Below are positions 1,852-62,932 of a stretch of 64,000 nt of DNA, piece after piece; position 1 is the stretch's first letter; every line of letters starts with the position of its first letter. Where the stretch lies: the NCBI GenBank assembly GCA_963716725.1, contig CAVQUB010000020.1:32001-96000 (forward strand). Reading direction: 5' to 3'. Source of the DNA: an uncultured delta proteobacterium. Lineage in GTDB: Bacteria; Myxococcota_A; Polyangia; Polyangiales; Polyangiaceae. The notes below the pieces were generated by a model, which was not told the origin of the DNA, did not search any database, and was given only the letters and a program-made list of their open reading frames with translations. The position numbers were made by a program, and so were the translations under genes.

Positions 1852-2358
1852 CTAGTGCCGCGCGGCTGAAGTTCGAGTGGATTCGCGCCTGAGACCCGCG
1901 CTCATTTGGGCTCTCACAGGAAGGGCGGAAGAGCGGAAGGATTGGGGGGGGTCAGGCGTGAGCCCCCGCAGGCCATTTCTGAGCGCGGTCACGTTGAAGT
2001 TGACGAGCAGGCCGACAGGCAACTGCGAAAGGCGCAGATAGGTGATGACCTGCGCTTCGTGAATCGGGAGCAGCCGCTCGACCGCCCCGAGCTCCAGGAG
2101 GATATGATCTGGAAGCGACCAGGTCGAGGCGATAGGCGCAGTCAAGGTGCACGCCTTTTTGGCGGATTGGTAGCGGATTGGTAGCGGTCGCTGCCGCTCG
2201 AACCTGAGCCGTCGTTCGGACAGCTCGGCAGATAGACAGGCCTCGTATGCGGATTCCATCTGCCCTGGACCGAGATGCCGATGCACCTCGATCAGCGCAC
2301 CGATCACCTCGTCCGTCCCCTCCCCAAATCTTCCGAGCTTTCGCCCTTCCTGTGCCAT
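1852..2358 (-). CDS. GxxExxY protein, degenerate copy
   Basis: HRHLGPGQMESAY motif. Internal segment out of frame between +11 and +1 indels. ELK changed to ELG. Confidence 0.7.
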   Translation of the reverse strand: MAQEGRKLGRFGEGTDEVIGALIEVHRHLGPGQMESAYEACLSAELSERRLRFERQRPLPIRYQSAKKACTLTAPIASTWSLPDHILLELGAVERLLPIHEAQVITYLRLSQLPVGLLVNFNVTALRNGLRGLTPDPPQSFRSSALPVRAQMSAGLRRESTRTSAARH

Positions 2359-2495
2359 CCCCGTGCGAGCGGAACCGTCGGACGACCACCGTGCGCTCGG
2401 CCCGCGAACGCGCTGTAGTCGATCATGTCACCCCACTACGCCGACGACACGCACACGGAAAAGAAGCCAGCGAAACTTCTGCCGCGCGGTACTAG
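1852..2495 (-). mobile_element. Internally deleted copy of the IS630/GxxExxY element (transposase almost entirely lost)
   Basis: Ends CTAGTGCCGCGCGGC... and ...GCCGCGCGGTACTAG. Near-identical in reverse to both ends of 34876-36611, with a deletion junction at about 2365. Confidence 0.9.
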
Positions 2496-30964: not shown

Positions 30965-33900
30965 GTGGTGTCTTCCGCCCCTCCCGATGGCCAGCTGATG
31001 GGTGGCCGCTTCGTCGTCGAACGCGAGGTCGGTCGCGGCGGCGTTGGCATCGTCTACCGGGCCTGGGACAAGGAGACCGAGAGCTACGTCGCGCTCAAGG
31101 TCATCGCCGCGGACGCGGGGGTCTCGCCGGAAGAAGAGGCCCGGCTGACCCGGGAGGGCGAGCTGCTCAGCCACCTCGACCACCCGGGGATCGTCAAGAT
31201 CGTCGCTTACGGCATCCTCGAAGACTCGGGCCTGCCCTTCATCGCCATGGAGTGGCTGGACGGTGAAGACCTGTCCCGCCGACAGCGCAAGGACCCGCTG
31301 AGCATCCGACAGGCCGTCGAGCTGAGCATCTTGATCGCGACGGCGCTGGAGACCGCCCACCAAGCCGGGGTGATCCATCGCGACATCAAGCCCGGCAACA
31401 TCGTGCTCACCTCGCGGACCGGCGATCCCGGGTCGTTGGACGTGGTGCCGAAGCTCGTCGACTTCGGCACCGCGGCGAGCGGTGACATCCGCATCACGCG
31501 CAACGGTGATGTGGTCGGCACGCCTGCTTACATGGCGCCCGAGCAAGCTCGGGGTGACGCCCCGATCGACGTGAGGTCCGACATCTACTCCCTCGGAGCC
31601 ACCCTCTTCGAGCTGGTGGCCGGACGCCCCCCCCACGTCGGCCCCACCCCGATCGCAACGCTAGCTCGCTTGGTGACCACCCCTCCCCCGCGGCTCTCCG
31701 AGCTGCGGCGCGACACACCGCCGCTGCTCGAGGCGCTGGTGCATCGCATGCTGTCGACCGATCCGGACCAGCGACCCGCCAGCATGCGCGAGGTGATCGC
31801 CGCGCTCGAGGACGCCAGGCTGGAGCGCAACCTGTTGGTCTTGCCTTCCACGGGCATGAGCGAGCCGGCCCTCTCCACTCGCTTGGGCTCCAGCGCCTCG
31901 CGGCTCGTCACCAGCATCGTAGCCCTGCGCTTTGCCCAGGGATCGGCCCGGGAGCGCGCCCTCGAGCACCTGCGCTCCCGGGGCGCGGACGCGGTCCCGC
32001 TCGGCTCCGACTCCATCGTGGCTCATCTCGGCGCCCGGCACTCGGTGGGAACCGAGGCCACCACTGCCCTCGAGCTCGGTCGCAAGCTCGCTCACGCAGG
32101 CGCGCGCGTCGGGATCGCCAGCGGACGTGCGCGCCTGAACCTGACCACCGACACCGGTGAGCTCCAGCCCGTCGGCGAGGTCGTGGACCGCGCCTCGTCG
32201 CTGGCTCGCGACGCCGATCCGTCCATGGTCCTCGCCGACGCCACCACCAGCGAGCTCGGGCGCGGGCGTTTCGAGTTTCGCGCGCGAGACGACGGCTCGA
32301 GCAGCATCGTCGGCGAGCAACTGCGCGGACCCCGGGCCGAACGGGCCGGCGGTGCGCCCTTCGTAGGGCGCGAGCCGGAGATGGCTCAGGTGGTCAGCGC
32401 CTTCGAACGCTGCCGAGGTGACTCGACGCCAATTCTGGTCACGGTCACCGGGCCTCCGGGCATCGGCAAGAGCCGCCTGCGGCGCGAGGTGCTGGCTCGC
32501 ATCACGGCCAGCGCGGATGCACCCGTGGTGGTGTTGCAGCGCAGCGACGCCTACGGCAGCGGACACGCCCTGGGCGCAGCCGCGGACGTGTTGCGCTCCA
32601 TCGTTGGCCTGTCGAAGGGCGCGACGGCCAAAGAAGCCGAGACCGCCATCGTGAGCCGGCTGGGCCCGGCGACTCGCAGCGATCTGACCAGCAAGAATCG
32701 CGAACTCTTGGCGCGCCTCCTGGCAAACGAGGCGCTGCCCGAAGGGCTCGACCCCCGCGGCGCCCGCGACGTCCTGTGGTTGGCCATGACCGACTTGGTT
32801 CTGCAGGTCGCCGCCCAAGAACCCACGGTGCTCGTCATGGAGGACCTGCAATGGGCCGACCAAGAGAGCATTGGTTGGATCGACCACATGCTGGGTCGCG
32901 CGGCGCAAAAGCCCCTCTTGGTCTTGGCGCTGGTTCGACCCGCGTTTTGGCACGACCACCCCCTCCGCTTTGCCGGTCGCGACCACGTGCGGCTCGAGCT
33001 GCGACCGATTTCGAAGAGGGCAACCCGCACCATCGCTCGGGCGCTGATGGGCGAGAGCGCCCCCGAGGACGTGCTCGATCGCATCGCCGAGCAGAGCGCC
33101 GGGCTCCCGCTGTTCGCCGAAGAGCTGGCGCGGATCGCGGTCACACGCCAGGAGCCAGTCAACGCTCCCACCATCGAAGCCGCCATCCAGGTGAGTCTGG
33201 ACTCGCTCGACGACGAGTGTCGCGACGCCGTGGGGCGACTCAGCGTCTTCGGCCAGAGCTGCTGGGACACCGGGCTGGAGGCGCTGGGGCTGCCCAACGC
33301 CGAGAGCGTCATGAAGGCGCTGGCCGCCGCCGAGATCCTGATGGAGCAGAACGTCTCGCGCTTTCCCGGCACCCGCGAGTGGGTATTCAAACACGCATTG
33401 GTGCGCGAGGTCGCCTACTCGAGCTTGGGAGATCGCGAACGCGACGAGTTGCACGCGCTCGCGGCGGGGTGGCTCGCGCGCATGGGTGAAGACGCCGCCA
33501 CGGTCGCTGGCCACTACGACCTCGGCAAGGAGCACGTCGCCGCCGCCGCGCATTGGTCCCGGGCAGCGCAGCGCGCTCTTGCCACCAACGCCATCACCGA
33601 CGCGCTTCGCATGGCCGAGCGCGCCCTGGCCTTTGCCGAGGAGAAACCAGACGCTTTCCTACGTGCTTCGTACCTCGACGAAGCTCACAGCCGCCTCGAC
33701 CCGCGGGCCAGCGAGCGAGAAACGGCCGTCGGCGCCATGGAAGACAACGTCTACGACGAGGCCAGCGCGGTGCGTGCAACCGGTGCGCGTGCGCGCTACG
33801 ACGATGCGCGCGGCGTCGGTCACGACATCACCGAGCGCCTGGCCGAAACCCGGGACAAGGCCGCGGCGCTGGGCCTGCATGACGAGGAAGCTCGCTGCTC

Positions 33901-34879
33901 AGCGGTGCTGGCGAACCGCCTCGCGTTTGCGGGCCGCTTCGCCGAGGCCGAAGCCGAAGCCACCCGCCTGCTCGAGCTGGCCGAGCGAAAGGCAACTTCC
34001 GCGGCGGCCGTGGACGCCTGGCAGACCTTCGCCATCGTTCGGCAGACCCAGGGAGCCGTGACCGCGGCGCTCGACGCACGTCGCAACGCCGTCAAAGCCG
34101 CGCGCTCCGCCGGGCTGAAAGAGCGGGAAGCCATGCTGATGACCAACTTGGGCTTTGCGCTGACCAGCATCGGGGCTCGCCAAGAGGCGCGGGGCGCCCT
34201 GGAAACGGGGCTTGCCCTGGCGGACGCCATCGGGTCGTCCGGAGCGGTGCGCCACGCGCAGATGAATTTGCTCGGCTGGGCGGCGACCTTCGGCAACGAC
34301 AAAGCACTCGAGGTGCACCTCGCCGAGGTCCGCGCCGAAGCGGACTCGACGGCGAGCGGGGTGTGGGCGGCCCCCGACCGAGCAAATCTAGGCGTGCTCT
34401 TCTACCGAGGCATGGAGCTTTTGCGTGCGAAGAACGAGACCTCATGCAAGCGCGCGGCGGCCCTCCTGCGCATGGCCGCTCAGGGTTATCGGGCCACGGG
34501 CAATCGTGACATCTTGCCCGCCGCATTGGGGCTCTGGGCCGAGGCCGAGCGCCGTTGCGGGAACTCCCAACGCGCCGCCGAGCTCGCTCGAGAGGCCGCG
34601 GAGTTGCTCGAGAGCGGCGCGCCCAGTCTCCTGAACGAGTCCAGCGTATATCTGCCGCTGCACGACGCCTGCGTGGAACTCGAGGACGCAGAACATGCGA
34701 AGCAGGCGGTGATCAGGGGACTGCAACCGCTGCAGCGGCGCCTCGAGGGTCTGCTCGGCACCACCTACGCGCGCTTGTTCTTGACCGAGTTGCCCAACAA
34801 CGCGGCGCTCCTGGCCGCGGCTGAAGGCTATGGCCTGGTGCCGGAGCGTATCCACCGGCTGCTCGAGACGAAGAACTAG
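30965..34879 (+). CDS. Ser/Thr kinase - degenerate cyclase-like - AAA (STAND-like) - TPR protein
   Basis: HRDIKPGN/DFG; FVGREPE, GPPGIGKS, EDLQWAD, GLPLFAEEL, FKHALVRE. Confidence 0.9.
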   Translation: MVSSAPPDGQLMGGRFVVEREVGRGGVGIVYRAWDKETESYVALKVIAADAGVSPEEEARLTREGELLSHLDHPGIVKIVAYGILEDSGLPFIAMEWLDGEDLSRRQRKDPLSIRQAVELSILIATALETAHQAGVIHRDIKPGNIVLTSRTGDPGSLDVVPKLVDFGTAASGDIRITRNGDVVGTPAYMAPEQARGDAPIDVRSDIYSLGATLFELVAGRPPHVGPTPIATLARLVTTPPPRLSELRRDTPPLLEALVHRMLSTDPDQRPASMREVIAALEDARLERNLLVLPSTGMSEPALSTRLGSSASRLVTSIVALRFAQGSARERALEHLRSRGADAVPLGSDSIVAHLGARHSVGTEATTALELGRKLAHAGARVGIASGRARLNLTTDTGELQPVGEVVDRASSLARDADPSMVLADATTSELGRGRFEFRARDDGSSSIVGEQLRGPRAERAGGAPFVGREPEMAQVVSAFERCRGDSTPILVTVTGPPGIGKSRLRREVLARITASADAPVVVLQRSDAYGSGHALGAAADVLRSIVGLSKGATAKEAETAIVSRLGPATRSDLTSKNRELLARLLANEALPEGLDPRGARDVLWLAMTDLVLQVAAQEPTVLVMEDLQWADQESIGWIDHMLGRAAQKPLLVLALVRPAFWHDHPLRFAGRDHVRLELRPISKRATRTIARALMGESAPEDVLDRIAEQSAGLPLFAEELARIAVTRQEPVNAPTIEAAIQVSLDSLDDECRDAVGRLSVFGQSCWDTGLEALGLPNAESVMKALAAAEILMEQNVSRFPGTREWVFKHALVREVAYSSLGDRERDELHALAAGWLARMGEDAATVAGHYDLGKEHVAAAAHWSRAAQRALATNAITDALRMAERALAFAEEKPDAFLRASYLDEAHSRLDPRASERETAVGAMEDNVYDEASAVRATGARARYDDARGVGHDITERLAETRDKAAALGLHDEEARCSAVLANRLAFAGRFAEAEAEATRLLELAERKATSAAAVDAWQTFAIVRQTQGAVTAALDARRNAVKAARSAGLKEREAMLMTNLGFALTSIGARQEARGALETGLALADAIGSSGAVRHAQMNLLGWAATFGNDKALEVHLAEVRAEADSTASGVWAAPDRANLGVLFYRGMELLRAKNETSCKRAAALLRMAAQGYRATGNRDILPAALGLWAEAERRCGNSQRAAELAREAAELLESGAPSLLNESSVYLPLHDACVELEDAEHAKQAVIRGLQPLQRRLEGLLGTTYARLFLTELPNNAALLAAAEGYGLVPERIHRLLETKN

Positions 34880-34944
34880 TGCCGCGCGGCAGAAGTTTCG
34901 CTGGTTTCTTTTCCGTGTGCGTGTCGTCGGTGTAGTGGGGTGAC

Positions 34945-36098
34945 ATGATCGACTACAGCGCGTTCGCGGGCCGAGCGCACGGTGGTCGTCCGACGGTTCC
35001 GCTCGCGCTGAGGGCTGAAGAGCGCGCGCGGATCGAGGAGGCGTTGCGACCCGCCAGGGCGGAGCAGCGGCTGGTTCGTCGGGCGCAGGCCGTGTTGATG
35101 ATGGCGGACGGAGTGCCTGCGACGGACATCGCCCGGCTCCTCGGGGTGCACGTGCGCACGGTGGACGACTGGCGCAAGCGCTTCGACTGCGCGGCACCTA
35201 GCGAGAGACTGGCGGACGCCCCGCGCTCGGGACGGCCGCCCTCTCTCTCTCGGACACCGTAGCGGCTCGAGTAGAAGCAGAAGCGTGTCGACCGCCGAGC
35301 GACGTCGGCGTGCCCGTCACGCACTGGTCAGCGTCGTTGCTTGGCGTGCACGTTCGCGCGCAAGGAATTCAGATCAGCGACCGGTCGGTGGGCCGCATAC
35401 TCAAGGATGCTGACCTGCAACCGCATCGGCAACAAATGTACCTGACTTCGCACGACGACGAGTTCAGGGGGAAGCGCGACGACGTGCTGCGCGTCTACTA
35501 CGAGACGCCAAAGAAGGAGCACATCGTGTGCGTCGACGAGAAGACCGGCATCCAGGCGCTCGAACGCCGCTACGCTGACATTCCGATGGTGGCCGGACAG
35601 CCCGTCCGCCGCGAATTCGAGTACGTCCGCCATGGCACGCTCTGCTGGATGGGAGCGCTCGATGTCCGCCGCGGCAAGCCGTTCGGCTTCATCTCGGACG
35701 GGCACGACAGCGACACCTTCGTCGAACTACTCGACGTCATCGAGGCGGTCTACCCGCCGGGTCGTGGCCACATCATCATGGACAATCTCTCCGCCCACGA
35801 CACGCCCGACGTGAACGAGTGGTTTGACGAGCACCCACGCTGGACGCGCCACTTCACGCCGAAGCACGCGTCGTGGCTCAACCGGATCGAGTGCTGGTTC
35901 TCGATCCTCACGCGCCAACTTCTCGCACGAGGCTCGTTCACGTCAACCGACGACCTCGCGGCGAGGATCGACGCGTACGTCGCGTGGTATCTGCAGACCG
36001 ACCGACCCTTTCGCTGGTCGTACCGCCCCAAGTCGTGGGCCGAATCCAGAAAAATCTCCTCACTTTCTGCGAAGAAAGCCGCAACTGTTTCGGAGTGA
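34945..36098 (+). CDS. IS630-family transposase, interrupted by +2 in a (CT)5 run at 35241-35250
   Basis: HTH with DAPRSGRP; VDEKT, EYVRHGT, IMDNLSAH, SWLNRIECWF. The (CT)4 allele in copy 3 joins the two ORFs in frame. Confidence 0.9.
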
Positions 36099-36115
36099 GG
36101 CCCGACCACACGGGG

Positions 36116-36611
36116 ATGGCACAGGAAGGGCGAAAGCTCGGAAGATTTGGGGATGGGACGGACGAGGTGATCGGTGCGCTGATCGAGGTGCATCGGCATC
36201 TCGGTCCAGGGCTGATGGAATCCGCATATGAGGCCTGTCTATCTGCCGAGCTGTCCGAACGACGGCTCAAGTTCGAGCGGCAGCGACCGCTACCAATCCG
36301 CTACAAAGGCGTACACCTTGACTGCGCCTATCGCCTCGACCTGGTCGCTTCCAGATCGTATCCTCCTGGAGCTCAAGGCGGTCGAGCGGCTGCTCCCGAT
36401 TTACGAAGCGCAGGTCATCACCTATCTGCGCCTTTCGCGGTTGCCCGTCGGCCTGCTCGTCAACTTCAACGTGACCGCGCTCAGAAATGGCCTGCGGAGG
36501 CTAACGCCTGACCACCCCAAATCCTTCCGCTCTTCCGCCCTTCCTGTGAGAGCCCAAATGAGCGCAGGTCTCAGGGGCGAATCCACTCGAACTTCGGCCG
36601 CGCGGCACTAG
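36116..36611 (+). pseudogene. GxxExxY protein with +1 frameshift at about 36348
   Basis: GPGLMESAY; GTCGCTTCCAGAT here versus GTCGTCGAAGAT in the intact copy. Confidence 0.8.
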
Positions 36612-37813
36612 CGCGCGAGCGCTTTGCCGATCCGCGTGCAGGCTTCTTCGACCCGCGGCGGATCTTCGATCAGCGCAAAGCGCAGGAATCCCTCGCCGCC
36701 GGGCCCGAAGCCCGTGCCGGGCGACAGCGCAACGTGCGCCTCCTCGATCAGCCACGTGGCGGCGTCCCGCGAGCTCTTTCCCGCGAGCTTTCGCGGGATC
36801 TTCGCCCAGACGAACATGCTGCCACTCGGCTCGGGCACGTCGCCCCAGCCCGAAGCCGCGAGCCCGCGGGTCAGGGTGGTCGCGCGCGTTTGGTAAAGGG
36901 ACCGGATCTCGTCCACCAGCCCGTCGCCGTGGTCGAGGGCCCAAGCCGCCGCGTACTGCAGCGGCATGAAGGTGCCGTAGTCCATGTAGGTCTTGAGGTG
37001 CGAGAGCGCAGCGACCATTCGGGCGTTGCCGGCCATGAAGGCGATGCGCCAGCCCGGCATGTTGTAGCTCTTCGACATCGAGAAGACTTCGACGGCAAAG
37101 CTCTTCACCTGATCGTGATCGACCCCGCAGTCGAAGATGCTCGGGGCGTGGCGCGTGCTAAAATCGAGATCCGCGTACGCCGCGTCGTGCAGCAGCATGG
37201 CGCCCCCGCGCCCGACGACGCGCACGAGATCCGCGAGGGCCTCTCGCGAGATGACGAACCCGGTGGGGTTGTGCGGGTAGTTCGCGATCACGAGCTTGGT
37301 CTTGCCGCCTGCCTTCTCGACCTTCTGCATCGCATCTGCAATGGCCTTGGCCGGCTCCAGCTCGGCGGCCACTGAGTAGCCGACCACGGCGGCACCCGCG
37401 ATGGCGGGCGCCCCCTCGTGAATGGGATAACAGGGGTCCGGAACCACCGCGGAGTCCCCACGGTCGAGGATGGCGAGGCACAGGTGGCTGATGCCCTCCT
37501 TCGCACCCATGGTGACCAAGACCTCGGAGTCGACGTCGAAGCGTGTCTGGTAGCGTCGCTCGTACCAGCGGCCGAAGGCGGCCCGCAGCGCCGGCAGACC
37601 ACGCCCAGGGTGGTAGCGGTGGTTCTTCCCGATGTCGGCGGCAGCGTGCAGCTGATCCACGATGGCCTGGGGCGTCGGCCGATCGGGGTTGCCGAGGCCG
37701 AGATCGATGAGGTCGGCACCCGCGTCGATGGCCTTCTTCTTCACCGCGTCGGTGGCGACGAAGGCATAGGTGGGCAGGGCTTCAGCACGGGGGAAAGGCC
37801 AAGGGTTCGTCAC
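36608..37813 (-). CDS. Class I/II PLP aminotransferase (AlaC/LL-DAP aminotransferase-like)
   Basis: DLGLGNPD, NYPHNPTG, DAAY, SMSKSYNMPGWR. Confidence 0.9.
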   Translation of the reverse strand: MTNPWPFPRAEALPTYAFVATDAVKKKAIDAGADLIDLGLGNPDRPTPQAIVDQLHAAADIGKNHRYHPGRGLPALRAAFGRWYERRYQTRFDVDSEVLVTMGAKEGISHLCLAILDRGDSAVVPDPCYPIHEGAPAIAGAAVVGYSVAAELEPAKAIADAMQKVEKAGGKTKLVIANYPHNPTGFVISREALADLVRVVGRGGAMLLHDAAYADLDFSTRHAPSIFDCGVDHDQVKSFAVEVFSMSKSYNMPGWRIAFMAGNARMVAALSHLKTYMDYGTFMPLQYAAAWALDHGDGLVDEIRSLYQTRATTLTRGLAASGWGDVPEPSGSMFVWAKIPRKLAGKSSRDAATWLIEEAHVALSPGTGFGPGGEGFLRFALIEDPPRVEEACTRIGKALAR

Positions 37814-61648: not shown

Positions 61649-61869
61649 CTAGTGCTGCGTCCCAGAAGTAACCGTCCATGATCGAGGCGCAGCTTAGGGG
61701 ACGCAGCACTGGCAATCGGTGAAGCCGATTGACTCGGGGTGAATCGGCCGAAGGCTGAGAGGGGCCCGAGGGGCCCCTACGAAGAGATAGTGTTGGCGCT
61801 GCTAAGCAGCGCATGCGGCGGAGCCGCGCCCAGAATTCGCGTAGCGCGAATTCTGGGACAGGACACTAG
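61649..61869. mobile_element. MITE/REP-like non-coding insert with CTAG ends
   Basis: Ends CTAGTGCTGCGTCCCAGAA and (reverse complement) CTAGTGTCCTGTCCCAGAA; several perfect hairpins. Confidence 0.65.
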
Positions 61870-61934
61870 TGCCGCGCGGCAGAAGTTTCGCTGGTTTCTT
61901 TTCCGTGTGCGTGTCGTCGGTGTAGTGGGGTGAC

Positions 61935-62420
61935 ATGATCGACTACAGCGCGTTCGCGGGTCGAGCGCACGGTGGTCGTCCGACGGTTCCGCTCGCGCTG
62001 AGGGCTGAAGAGCGCGCGCGGATCGAGGAGGCGTTGCGACCCGCCAGGGCGGAGCAGCGGCTGGTTCGTCGGGCGCAGGCCGTGTTGATGATGGCGGACG
62101 GAGTGCCTGCGACGGACATCGCCCGGCTCCTCGGGGTGCACGTGCGCACGGTGGACGACTGGCGCAAGCGCTTCGACTGCGCGGCACCTAGCGAGAGACT
62201 GGCGGACGCCCCGCGCTCGGGACGGCCGCCCTCTCTCTCGGACACCGTAGCGGCTCGAGTAGAAGCACCGACGACCTCGCGGCGAGGATCGACGCGTACG
62301 TCGCGTGGTATCCTGCAGACCGACCGACCCTTTCGCTGGTCGTACCGCCCCAAGTCGTGGGCCGAATCCAGAAAAATCCCCTCACTTTCTGCGAAGAAAG
62401 CCGCGGCTGTTTCGGAGTGA
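61935..62420 (+). pseudogene. IS630 transposase remnant (HTH fused to C-terminal tail)
   Basis: N-terminus identical to the 34945 ORF; catalytic core deleted. Confidence 0.85.
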
Positions 62421-62437
62421 GGCCCGACCACACGGGG

Positions 62438-62932
62438 ATGGCACAGGAAGGGCGAAAGCTCGGAAGATTTGGGGATGGGACGGACGAGGTGATCGGTGCG
62501 CTGATCGAGGTGCATCGGCATCTCGGTCCAGGGCTGATGGAATCCGCATATGAGGCCTGTCTATCTGCCGAGCTGTCCGAACGACGGCTCAAGTTCGAGC
62601 GGCAGCGACCGCTACCAATCCGCTACAAAGGCGTACACCTTGACTGCGCCTATCGCCTCGACCTGGTCGTCGAAGATCGTATCCTCCTGGAGCTCAAGGC
62701 GGTCGAGCGGCTGCTCCCGATTTACGAAGCGCAGGTCATCACCTATCTGCGTCTTTCGCGGTTGCCCGTCGGCCTGCTCGTCAACTTCAACGTGACCGCG
62801 CTCAGAAATGGCCTGCGGAGGCTAACGCCTGACCACCCCAAATCCTTCCGCTCTTCCGCCCTTCCTGTGAGAGCCCAAATGAGCGCAGGTCTCAGGGGCG
62901 AATCCACTCGAACTTCGGCCGCGCGGCACTAG
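62438..62932 (+). CDS. GxxExxY protein (PD-(D/E)XK-like), intact
   Basis: HRHLGPGLMESAY, YRLDLVVEDRILLELKAV, AQVITYL, GLLVNF. Confidence 0.9.
   Translation: MAQEGRKLGRFGDGTDEVIGALIEVHRHLGPGLMESAYEACLSAELSERRLKFERQRPLPIRYKGVHLDCAYRLDLVVEDRILLELKAVERLLPIYEAQVITYLRLSRLPVGLLVNFNVTALRNGLRRLTPDHPKSFRSSALPVRAQMSAGLRGESTRTSAARH

Follow-up and report, generated by a model that had tools for sequence, protein, structure and literature searches.

A GxxExxY gene apparently carried by an IS10-type miniature element within an IS630-family insertion sequence of a Polyangiaceae genome

INTRODUCTION

Insertion sequences (ISs) of the IS630 family, in the IS630/Tc1/mariner superfamily, are about 1.0–1.4 kb long and, as a rule, duplicate the TA within a CTAG-type target. 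Passenger genes inside IS ends are known from the IS4 family, which includes mobile insertion cassettes such as MIC231 of IS231; in the IS200/IS605 group, TnpB is conserved throughout its family of elements, the active copies having it intact. Here, we describe a 1736-bp element that carries, between IS630-type ends, a gene of the GxxExxY family (TIGR04256; PF13366/PDDEXK_3, which is listed with function unknown in the literature). It lies in a stretch of 64,000 nucleotides (nt), hereafter the window, that spans positions 32001–96000 of contig C20 (CAVQUB010000020.1) in the assembly GCA_963716725.1 of an uncultured delta proteobacterium of the Polyangiaceae (genome G000); positions given as 'nt' are counted from the left end of the 1736-bp copy. 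A sequence-only reading of the window had taken the element for a two-gene mobile unit in which GxxExxY acts as an accessory nuclease, loosely analogous to TnpB-type passengers. We conclude, with a probability of roughly 0.78, that it is a nest of three layers, an IS630-family IS around an IS10-type miniature element around a hairpin-armed GxxExxY gene, which arose through one insertion and then spread with a decaying passenger.

The outer layer resembles other IS630-family members in its NF033545/DDE_3 transposase with a helix-turn-helix part, its short inverted ends with CTAG, its use of the target TAG as a stop codon, and a length of ∼1.2 kb once the insert is disregarded; as with the miniatures of that family, its transposase-less internal-deletion derivatives multiply. 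It departs from the family in being 1736 bp long with a second element inside, in having its transposase tail replaced by codons of the insert, and in retaining that insert in every derivative. The insert has IS ends around a passenger gene, as do IS4-family mobile insertion cassettes and miniature inverted-repeat transposable elements, and it is flanked by 9-bp duplications in a sister species, G006; unlike those cassettes, it carries a hairpin-armed GxxExxY gene and, in G000, moves only within the IS630 element. From other GxxExxY cassettes of the phylum, it differs in its extra outer shell of IS10 type. The inverted arms that flank the gene may recall the repetitive extragenic palindromes (REPs) and their associated tyrosine transposases (RAYTs); the gene-less copies in G006 have IS10-type ends. 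Finally, the locus shares with IS200/IS605–TnpB a second gene, of predicted nuclease fold, that lies inside transposon ends and is kept in non-autonomous derivatives but, unlike tnpB, it occurs in none of the related elements checked and is broken in nearly all copies. No paper describing a hairpin GxxExxY cassette was found in the literature searched.

RESULTS AND DISCUSSION

The IS630-family element and its insert

By its transposase model, inverted ends and CTAG, the carrier belongs to the IS630 family. The transposase is divided between two open reading frames (ORFs): ORF A, the helix-turn-helix part, covers profile positions 1–57 of NF033545 (IS630), and ORF B, the DDE core, matches NF033545 with E = 7.4e-51 (173.4 bits; cut-off 100) and DDE_3 with E = 1.1e-23. 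The 33-nt terminal inverted repeats are 82% complementary, and CTAG is present at both ends in all 27 two-ended copies genome-wide, with flanks that differ between copies; from these ends, we infer that the TA itself is duplicated within the CTAG target. The length of 1736 bp exceeds the IS630 range, and subtraction of the 528-bp insert and one 9-mer brings it to about 1.2 kb. The three window copies with shared terminal repeats and CTAG ends that the sequence-only reading had listed (Table 1) were all recovered, at 94–100% identity over their shared parts, and the two short copies have two different internal deletions.

Table 1. Features of the element and its copies in the window
Feature	Position	Strand	Remarks
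Deletion derivative without nt 132-1233, 644 bp	1852-2495	-	One of 6 such copies
Composite element at full length, 1736 bp	34876-36611	+	IS630-family IS plus nested 528-bp unit; blastn, CTAG at both ends
Left IS630 terminal inverted repeat	34876-34908		33 nt, CTAG included
ORF A (helix-turn-helix part of the transposase), 105 aa	34945-35262	+	HTH_23 E 9.4e-13; HTH_29
(CT)5 tract within the ORF A/ORF B overlap	35241-35250	+	ORF B in -1 frame
Transposase ORF B, DDE core	35310-36098	+	NF033545, DDE_3
Left copy of 9-bp target duplication	36038-36046		GGCCGAATC; 8/9 match with right copy
Nested unit, 528 bp	36047-36574	+	Probable decayed IS10-type (IS4-family) miniature element with hairpin-armed GxxExxY
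Left arm of inner inverted repeat	36113-36156		Phased 8-nt units (GGAAG / GAAAG / GGAAG)
GxxExxY gene of full-length copy, broken	36116-36611	+	Frameshift at CTTCCA variant
Right arm of inner inverted repeat	36512-36555		
Right copy of 9-bp target duplication	36575-36583		GGGCGAATC
Right IS630 terminal inverted repeat	36579-36611		CTAG included; TAG of CTAG is the stop codon
Deletion derivative without nt 405-1070, 1067 bp	61866-62932	+	One of 9 such copies; (CT)4 tract
Intact GxxExxY ORF, 164 aa	62438-62932	+	TIGR04256, PF13366; family domain at residues 15-128

Two features, which that reading had not remarked upon, define the insert: a 44-nt inverted repeat (77% complementary) encloses the GxxExxY gene, and the 528-bp unit that contains both is flanked by a 9-bp duplication of its own. 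ORF B now takes its last ∼17 codons from the left end of this unit. A scan of genome contigs with ORF B retrieved 18 related IS630 loci with 46–89% amino acid identity, mostly from Polyangiaceae, Myxococcales or 'delta proteobacterium' metagenome-assembled genomes, and GxxExxY was found at none of the 18 (E ≤ 0.01). Nine of these elements are complete, with lengths of 1187–1207 bp; in the related elements, nt ∼1172 is followed at once by nt ∼1699, only one GGGCGAATC being present at that point, and the transposase frame crosses the right repeat to end on the terminal TAG. The statement that the GxxExxY ORF runs through the right terminal repeat to the terminal TAG is correct for the intact ORF at 62438-62932, in which the right arm, the outer end and what was once the end of the transposase gene together encode the tail of the 164-aa protein. 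Since the transposase of the relatives stops at that same TAG, comparison with them identifies this read-through tail as the former C-terminus of the transposase, joined to the gene after the duplicated 9-mer. With a flanking 9-bp duplication and cassette-free relatives, the pairing thus has the character of a one-off nested insertion in this lineage, which is what the sequence-only reading had named as the contrary outcome.

The proposed course of events is as follows. The carrier was an ordinary IS630-family IS of ∼1.2 kb, with a transposase read in two frames that overlapped at (CT)5 and originally ended at the target TAG. A 528-bp miniature with IS10-type ends, the cargo of which was a GxxExxY gene, putatively of the PD-(D/E)XK type, inside a 44-nt hairpin of phased 8-nt units, transposed once into the 9-mer GGGCGAATC, duplicating 9 bp; the site lies in the last transposase codons, at a distance of 28 bp from the right IS end. 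The chimeric 1736-bp IS stayed mobile and gave rise to at least 32 copies, internal deletions produced derivatives that lack the transposase, and three classes of these were amplified, presumably via the transposase of the full copies, with the nuclease gene hitch-hiking and decaying.

The nested unit stands alone in a sister species

Among 41 related genomes searched, the IS630 part of the element (nt 1–1178) matches strongly only in G000; elsewhere it gave one 70% match (in G019) and short weak matches. In G006, which is of the same genus, no match to the IS630 part was found, and at least eight places match only nt 1179–1705, at 73–88% identity. The full units of G006 are 528 bp long with perfect 21-bp inverted ends; one of them (L013) encodes an intact GxxExxY protein of 165 aa, and L014 is a second full unit. 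The window unit aligns with these end to end at 79–80% identity, both of its own ends having diverged. Six G006 copies have both ends: four are flanked by a perfect 9-bp duplication, one by an 8/9 match and one by 7 bp only, and one of the four with a perfect duplication is an 84-bp miniature devoid of the gene. All 24 matches to the 21-nt end in G006 belong to the cassette family, and nine solitary ends run into unit fragments of 45–206 bp. Given that the gene-less copies of G006 (84–414 bp) possess IS10-type ends and 9-bp duplications, an IS4-family transposase would account for them, and the nuclease would not be needed.

The affiliation of these ends emerges from metagenome contigs. The 17-nt end of the G006 units recurs in more than 122 metagenome stretches among the matches listed and is followed by many different sequences; GxxExxY lies inward of it in only 3 of 127 such stretches, again among the matches listed. 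One contig carries two ends 1257 bp apart, with CT ends, a perfect 9-bp duplication and a 391-aa transposase. The ORFs that adjoin the end matched NF033591 (IS4 family) above its cut-off of 152 in all three cases tested (226–256 bits; E = 8.5e-67 to 7e-76) and PF01609 (DDE_Tnp_1) in all six tested. Two 98-bp miniature copies with the same end also have perfect 9-bp duplications, so that three of three such duplications are perfect when the 1257-bp IS is included; two other pairs are not clear-cut. The values given for the IS10 subgroup in the relevant table of one source (1200–1350 bp, ends CT and 9-bp repeats; PMC2266710) fit the full IS of 1257 bp. The shared end, the adjoining NF033591 ORFs and the 9-bp duplications together identify the 528-bp unit, on sequence grounds, as a cassette-type miniature that derives from an IS10-like element and has the hairpin-armed GxxExxY gene as its cargo.

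Identity and decay of the GxxExxY gene

The protein encoded at 62438-62932 matches TIGR04256 with E = 4.9e-43 (146.2 bits; cut-off 35) and PF13366 with E = 2.2e-41 (141.3 bits; cut-off 22). In this intact copy, the family motif reads G32-L-M-E35-S-A-Y38, and the core residues are Asp75, Glu85 and Lys87. In an alignment of 17 sequences, Gly32, Glu35, Asp75, Glu85 and Lys87 are invariant, as are Gln99 and Tyr103, and Tyr38 is nearly so (≥90%). An AlphaFold2 model of the 164-aa protein has a mean predicted local distance difference test score (pLDDT) of 83 and a predicted template modelling score (pTM) of 0.73. When the model was compared with the Protein Data Bank (PDB), Foldseek returned nothing at E ≤ 0.001, the weak top rows being Cas4, lambda exonuclease and AddAB. 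With VIA-align, nearly all of the top rows were nucleases of the PD-(D/E)XK (restriction-endonuclease-like) fold; the best Z-score was 7.8 (3ijm_B; root-mean-square deviation 3.4 over 102 residues), values of Z below 8 being middling. A phmmer search of the protein against PDB sequences gave no match.

The claim that the two short window copies spare the whole GxxExxY gene holds for the DNA but not for the reading frame, which is intact only in the 1067-bp copy. In the full-length copy, a frameshift at 36348-36353 falls within the catalytic core, just past Asp75 and ahead of Glu85 and Lys87; the 644-bp copy has the same shift together with an 11-bp duplication, such that its frame is open and ∼24 residues (∼64–88) are scrambled. 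The picture is similar across the genome. Frames were read from the conserved start in 31 of the 32 copies, the remaining one being without the anchor, and 28 of the 31 are broken, including all five full-length, transposase-bearing copies. Twenty copies have the shift only, with a product of at most 131 aa that ends out of frame and is without Glu85, Lys87, Gln99 and Tyr103; two have a further shift; and in the six copies of the nt 132–1233 deletion class, the frame is restored, with residues ∼64–88 scrambled. Glu85 and Lys87 are consequently lost in the 22 copies with frameshift lesions alone, and Asp75 and Lys87 in the class of six. Just three copies keep the family frame, namely c16, c26 (the 1067-bp window copy) and c33, the last with His in place of Tyr38. 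For residues 15–128, the ratio of nonsynonymous to synonymous substitution rates (dN/dS) is 0.21 when the intact copy of the window is compared with that of G006; the gene was thus functional, under purifying selection, until recently. Its decay in G000 indicates that the IS can transpose without GxxExxY.

The shifted (CTTCCA) and intact (TCGAA) variants differ by three substitutions plus one base (in the window, 36348-36353 as against the 62669-62674 region). Templating of this variant by the downstream CTGGAGC, as in a quasi-palindrome, was considered and rejected by eye; the product would be one base off and in frame. We suspect, as the simplest account, that gene conversion among the 32 copies is responsible for the distribution of the two variants. 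Apart from those in the IS copies, the genome has a single GxxExxY gene (G000:C14:2117-2464), with an open frame and 48% amino acid identity.

These observations, and those made in the wider phylum, bear on the view that the IS630 transposase and GxxExxY form a co-adapted pair within one transposon, with GxxExxY as a TnpB-like accessory nuclease selected in all derivatives. Such a partnership would fit with the presence of the cassette DNA in all 32 copies, where no deletion enters it, with a gene that lies inside the element ends in the same orientation as the transposase, and with the three open frames in which the catalytic residues are kept. It is, however, hard to square with a gene that is broken in every autonomous copy, or with a cassette that possesses ends and a target duplication of its own and exists without IS630 in G006; moreover, the read-through to the terminal TAG is accounted for by the former transposase tail. 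Adjacency was likewise not borne out: in addition to the 18 IS630 relatives, which are without GxxExxY, no IS630 transposase lies within about 1.5 kb of the gene at any of 29 other GxxExxY loci of the phylum. The proposed role as an accessory nuclease of the IS thus falls away, and we regard the two-gene partnership as exceedingly improbable.

What the other loci of the phylum do share with the window is the hairpin. TIGR04256 was found in 46 of 301 sampled genomes of the phylum, and a flanking inverted-repeat score of at least 29 was reached at 19 of the 28 GxxExxY loci with enough flank, compared with none of 52 control windows, each shifted by 900 nt within these loci. The arms consist of phased 8-nt units of various sequences. 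The IS10-type end is absent from all 29 of the other loci, and no obvious target duplications were found beside the arms identified there by local alignment. From this survey, hairpin packaging is general for GxxExxY in the phylum, and the IS10 shell and the link to IS630 are not.

Copies, derivatives and retention of the cassette

When the element was used as a blastn query against the assembly (7.9 Mb; 35 contigs; 84% complete), 33 places were found, one of which is a diverged paralogue, leaving 32 copies. Five of these are full length and 99–100% identical. Internal deletions remove nt 405–1070 in nine copies, nt 132–1233 in six, nt 727–1205 in four, and nt 311–806 and nt 61–1191 in one copy each; a further copy is complex and five are left-truncated. 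As the sequence-only reading had it, the cassette travels with the IS: its DNA (nt ∼1238–1699) is kept in 32 of 32 copies, and a short-word search of the assembly with both ends found no cassette-less copies and no solitary IS630 ends outside them. A tree of the right-hand 500 bp separates one older and one younger subfamily. The nt 132–1233 class forms a single clade (six rows; support 100/99), and the remaining deletion classes are unresolved inside the young subfamily.

The deletion junctions show 0–2 nt of microhomology; for comparison, one study (PMC3814204) describes how deletions at microhomologies gave birth to miniature families from a Tc1/mariner element. That transposase-less classes have multiplied to nine, six and four copies at different CTAG sites bears out the earlier notion of spread as non-autonomous derivatives, and it implies mobilization in trans, presumably by the transposase of the five full copies.

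The right-hand end points of the deletions suggest why the cassette is always retained. For the internal deletions these are nt 807, 1035, 1071, 1192, 1206, 1232 and 1234, and for the left truncations nt 521, 719, 1157, 1196 and 1233; six of the 12 thus fall in nt 1192–1234, between the outer end of the unit and its left arm (rough binomial P = 2.6e-7, for an interval picked after the data had been seen). This clustering at the foot of the hairpin offers a mechanical explanation for constant retention, the likeliest cause being that synthesis stalls there: synthesis during repair or replication, having entered from the right end, would abort once both arms have been copied and can snap back, and deletions would then end at the hairpin foot.

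A number of observations weigh against the nested scheme, or against a purely passive cassette. The ends of the nested unit are decayed in G000, where the 21-nt end has no match at ≤3 mismatches, and the flanking duplication in the window is matched at only 8 of 9 positions. An IS10-type parent was found in none of G000, G006 and 39 other relatives, the parent type being seen only in metagenome contigs; a degenerate IS10-like end pattern, searched for in the 41 genomes, occurs only in G006 and at one solitary site in G025; and the 10 PF01609 loci of G006 are without the end at ≤4 mismatches, with the exception of one doubtful match at 4 mismatches. Within the gene, the intact variant is confined to three copies of one deletion class, the other six members of which are frameshifted, and the frameshift variant occurs in both subfamilies of the tree and cuts across the deletion classes. 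Because the assembly is 84% complete and in 35 contigs, copies may be missing. As to retention, none of the seven internal deletions enters nt 1238–1680 (rough joint P = 0.01, at ∼0.52 for each), the truncated copies have lost the left end in five cases and the right end in none, and such retention beyond chance may leave room for a benefit from the cassette DNA. Among the 32 copies, the arms are neither constrained nor relaxed in any consistent way relative to the ORF core, with variable sites at 3/44 positions in the left arm, 9/44 in the right arm and 50/355 in the core.

These same figures speak to a founder effect, in which a few deletions spared the right-hand quarter of the element by chance and their products were then amplified. 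The 27 defective copies do trace back to only ∼12 independent events, and a random internal deletion would spare nt 1238–1680 about half of the time; set against that are the joint probability for the seven deletions, the concentration of half of the end points in 43 nt and the one-sidedness of the truncations, and a founder effect strikes us as very improbable.

A cis-acting benefit of the hairpin itself, be it as a terminator or insulator, in protection of the end, or as a site on which GxxExxY acts in trans in the manner of REP/RAYT systems, would explain both the sparing of the cassette by every internal deletion and the bias of the truncations. Pairing of the long stem is, moreover, preserved in G000, in G006 and in one copy from a metagenome, four pairs of the arm showing compensatory changes, and the frequency of hairpin packaging in the phylum and the purifying selection on the gene until recently would be in keeping with a useful structure. 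The compensatory changes, on the other hand, come from just five sequences, of three lineages, and from arms that are themselves repetitive; among the 32 copies, variability is not consistently lower in the arms than in the ORF; the gene-less copies of G006 are explained by the IS4-family transposase; and the clustered break points at the hairpin foot offer a purely mechanical account of retention. On balance, we consider a cis-acting benefit unlikely. It is also quite unlikely, in our estimation, that the cassette is an active partner, whereby GxxExxY protein from the intact copies acts on the arm structure, as single-stranded DNA or RNA, and so steers the formation or retention of derivatives. 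The nested insertion with a hitch-hiking, decaying passenger remains our preferred account.

Transposase frames, neighbouring genes and related arrays

Where ORF A and ORF B overlap, all six related elements checked have kept a (CT)n tract, in three of them as an identical (CT)5. Two deletion copies, including that at 61866-62932 (region 62230-62240), have (CT)4, which puts both frames in register; none of the five full copies has it. The pattern suggests that dinucleotide-repeat slippage at (CT)5 could be the way in which the transposase is made or switched, and the shift between the two frames would be bypassed accordingly in the full copies.

On either side of the full-length copy, an ORF stops within the flanking CTAG: on the left, a kinase-like ORF of 1304 aa (30965-34879, +), with its stop in 34876-34879, and on the right, a convergent aminotransferase-like ORF (36608-37813, -), with its stop in 36608-36611. 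Since each neighbour stops in one of the two CTAGs, both probably once used a single one, that is, before the insertion the two ORFs probably overlapped at their stops in one palindromic CTAG.

Repeats related to the arms occur in several other places. In copy c19 (G000:C14:36042-36948), 36 nt of the cassette left arm are repeated in tandem, and in G006 the last ∼159 bp of the unit are repeated in tandem at L014:1516-1674; from these two duplications, the hairpin arms seem to be prone to slippage. The truncated copy c2, which starts at nt 1233, abuts a phased 8-nt array of CGCCAAGG-type units (G000:C2, about 112454-112520) that looks like the arm of another hairpin element; a solitary end in G006 (L028) is followed by a similar array, of ACGCCAAG. 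In G003, also of the same genus, three matches to the right-arm region (nt 1638–1672; 91%) are spaced at 60 nt in a gene-less tandem array (G003:C5:1147622-1147775).

Implications

The element is a further case of the known nested and cargo-carrying insertion sequences, with a side result that concerns the end points of its deletions. The idea of an IS630 element with a TnpB-like helper nuclease is removed; in its place stands a base-resolved example of a transposon within a transposon that spreads as a unit. As an IS4-family shell explains the terminal repeats and the 9-bp duplications here, such features around a GxxExxY gene should not be credited to the nuclease before the ends have been checked. 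Were the cassette an active partner after all, a nuclease-plus-repeat system would be parasitizing two unrelated DDE transposons, of IS10 and IS630 type, as its vehicles. If the clustering of end points at the hairpin foot is confirmed, then secondary structure within a transposon would decide which miniature derivatives arise from it.

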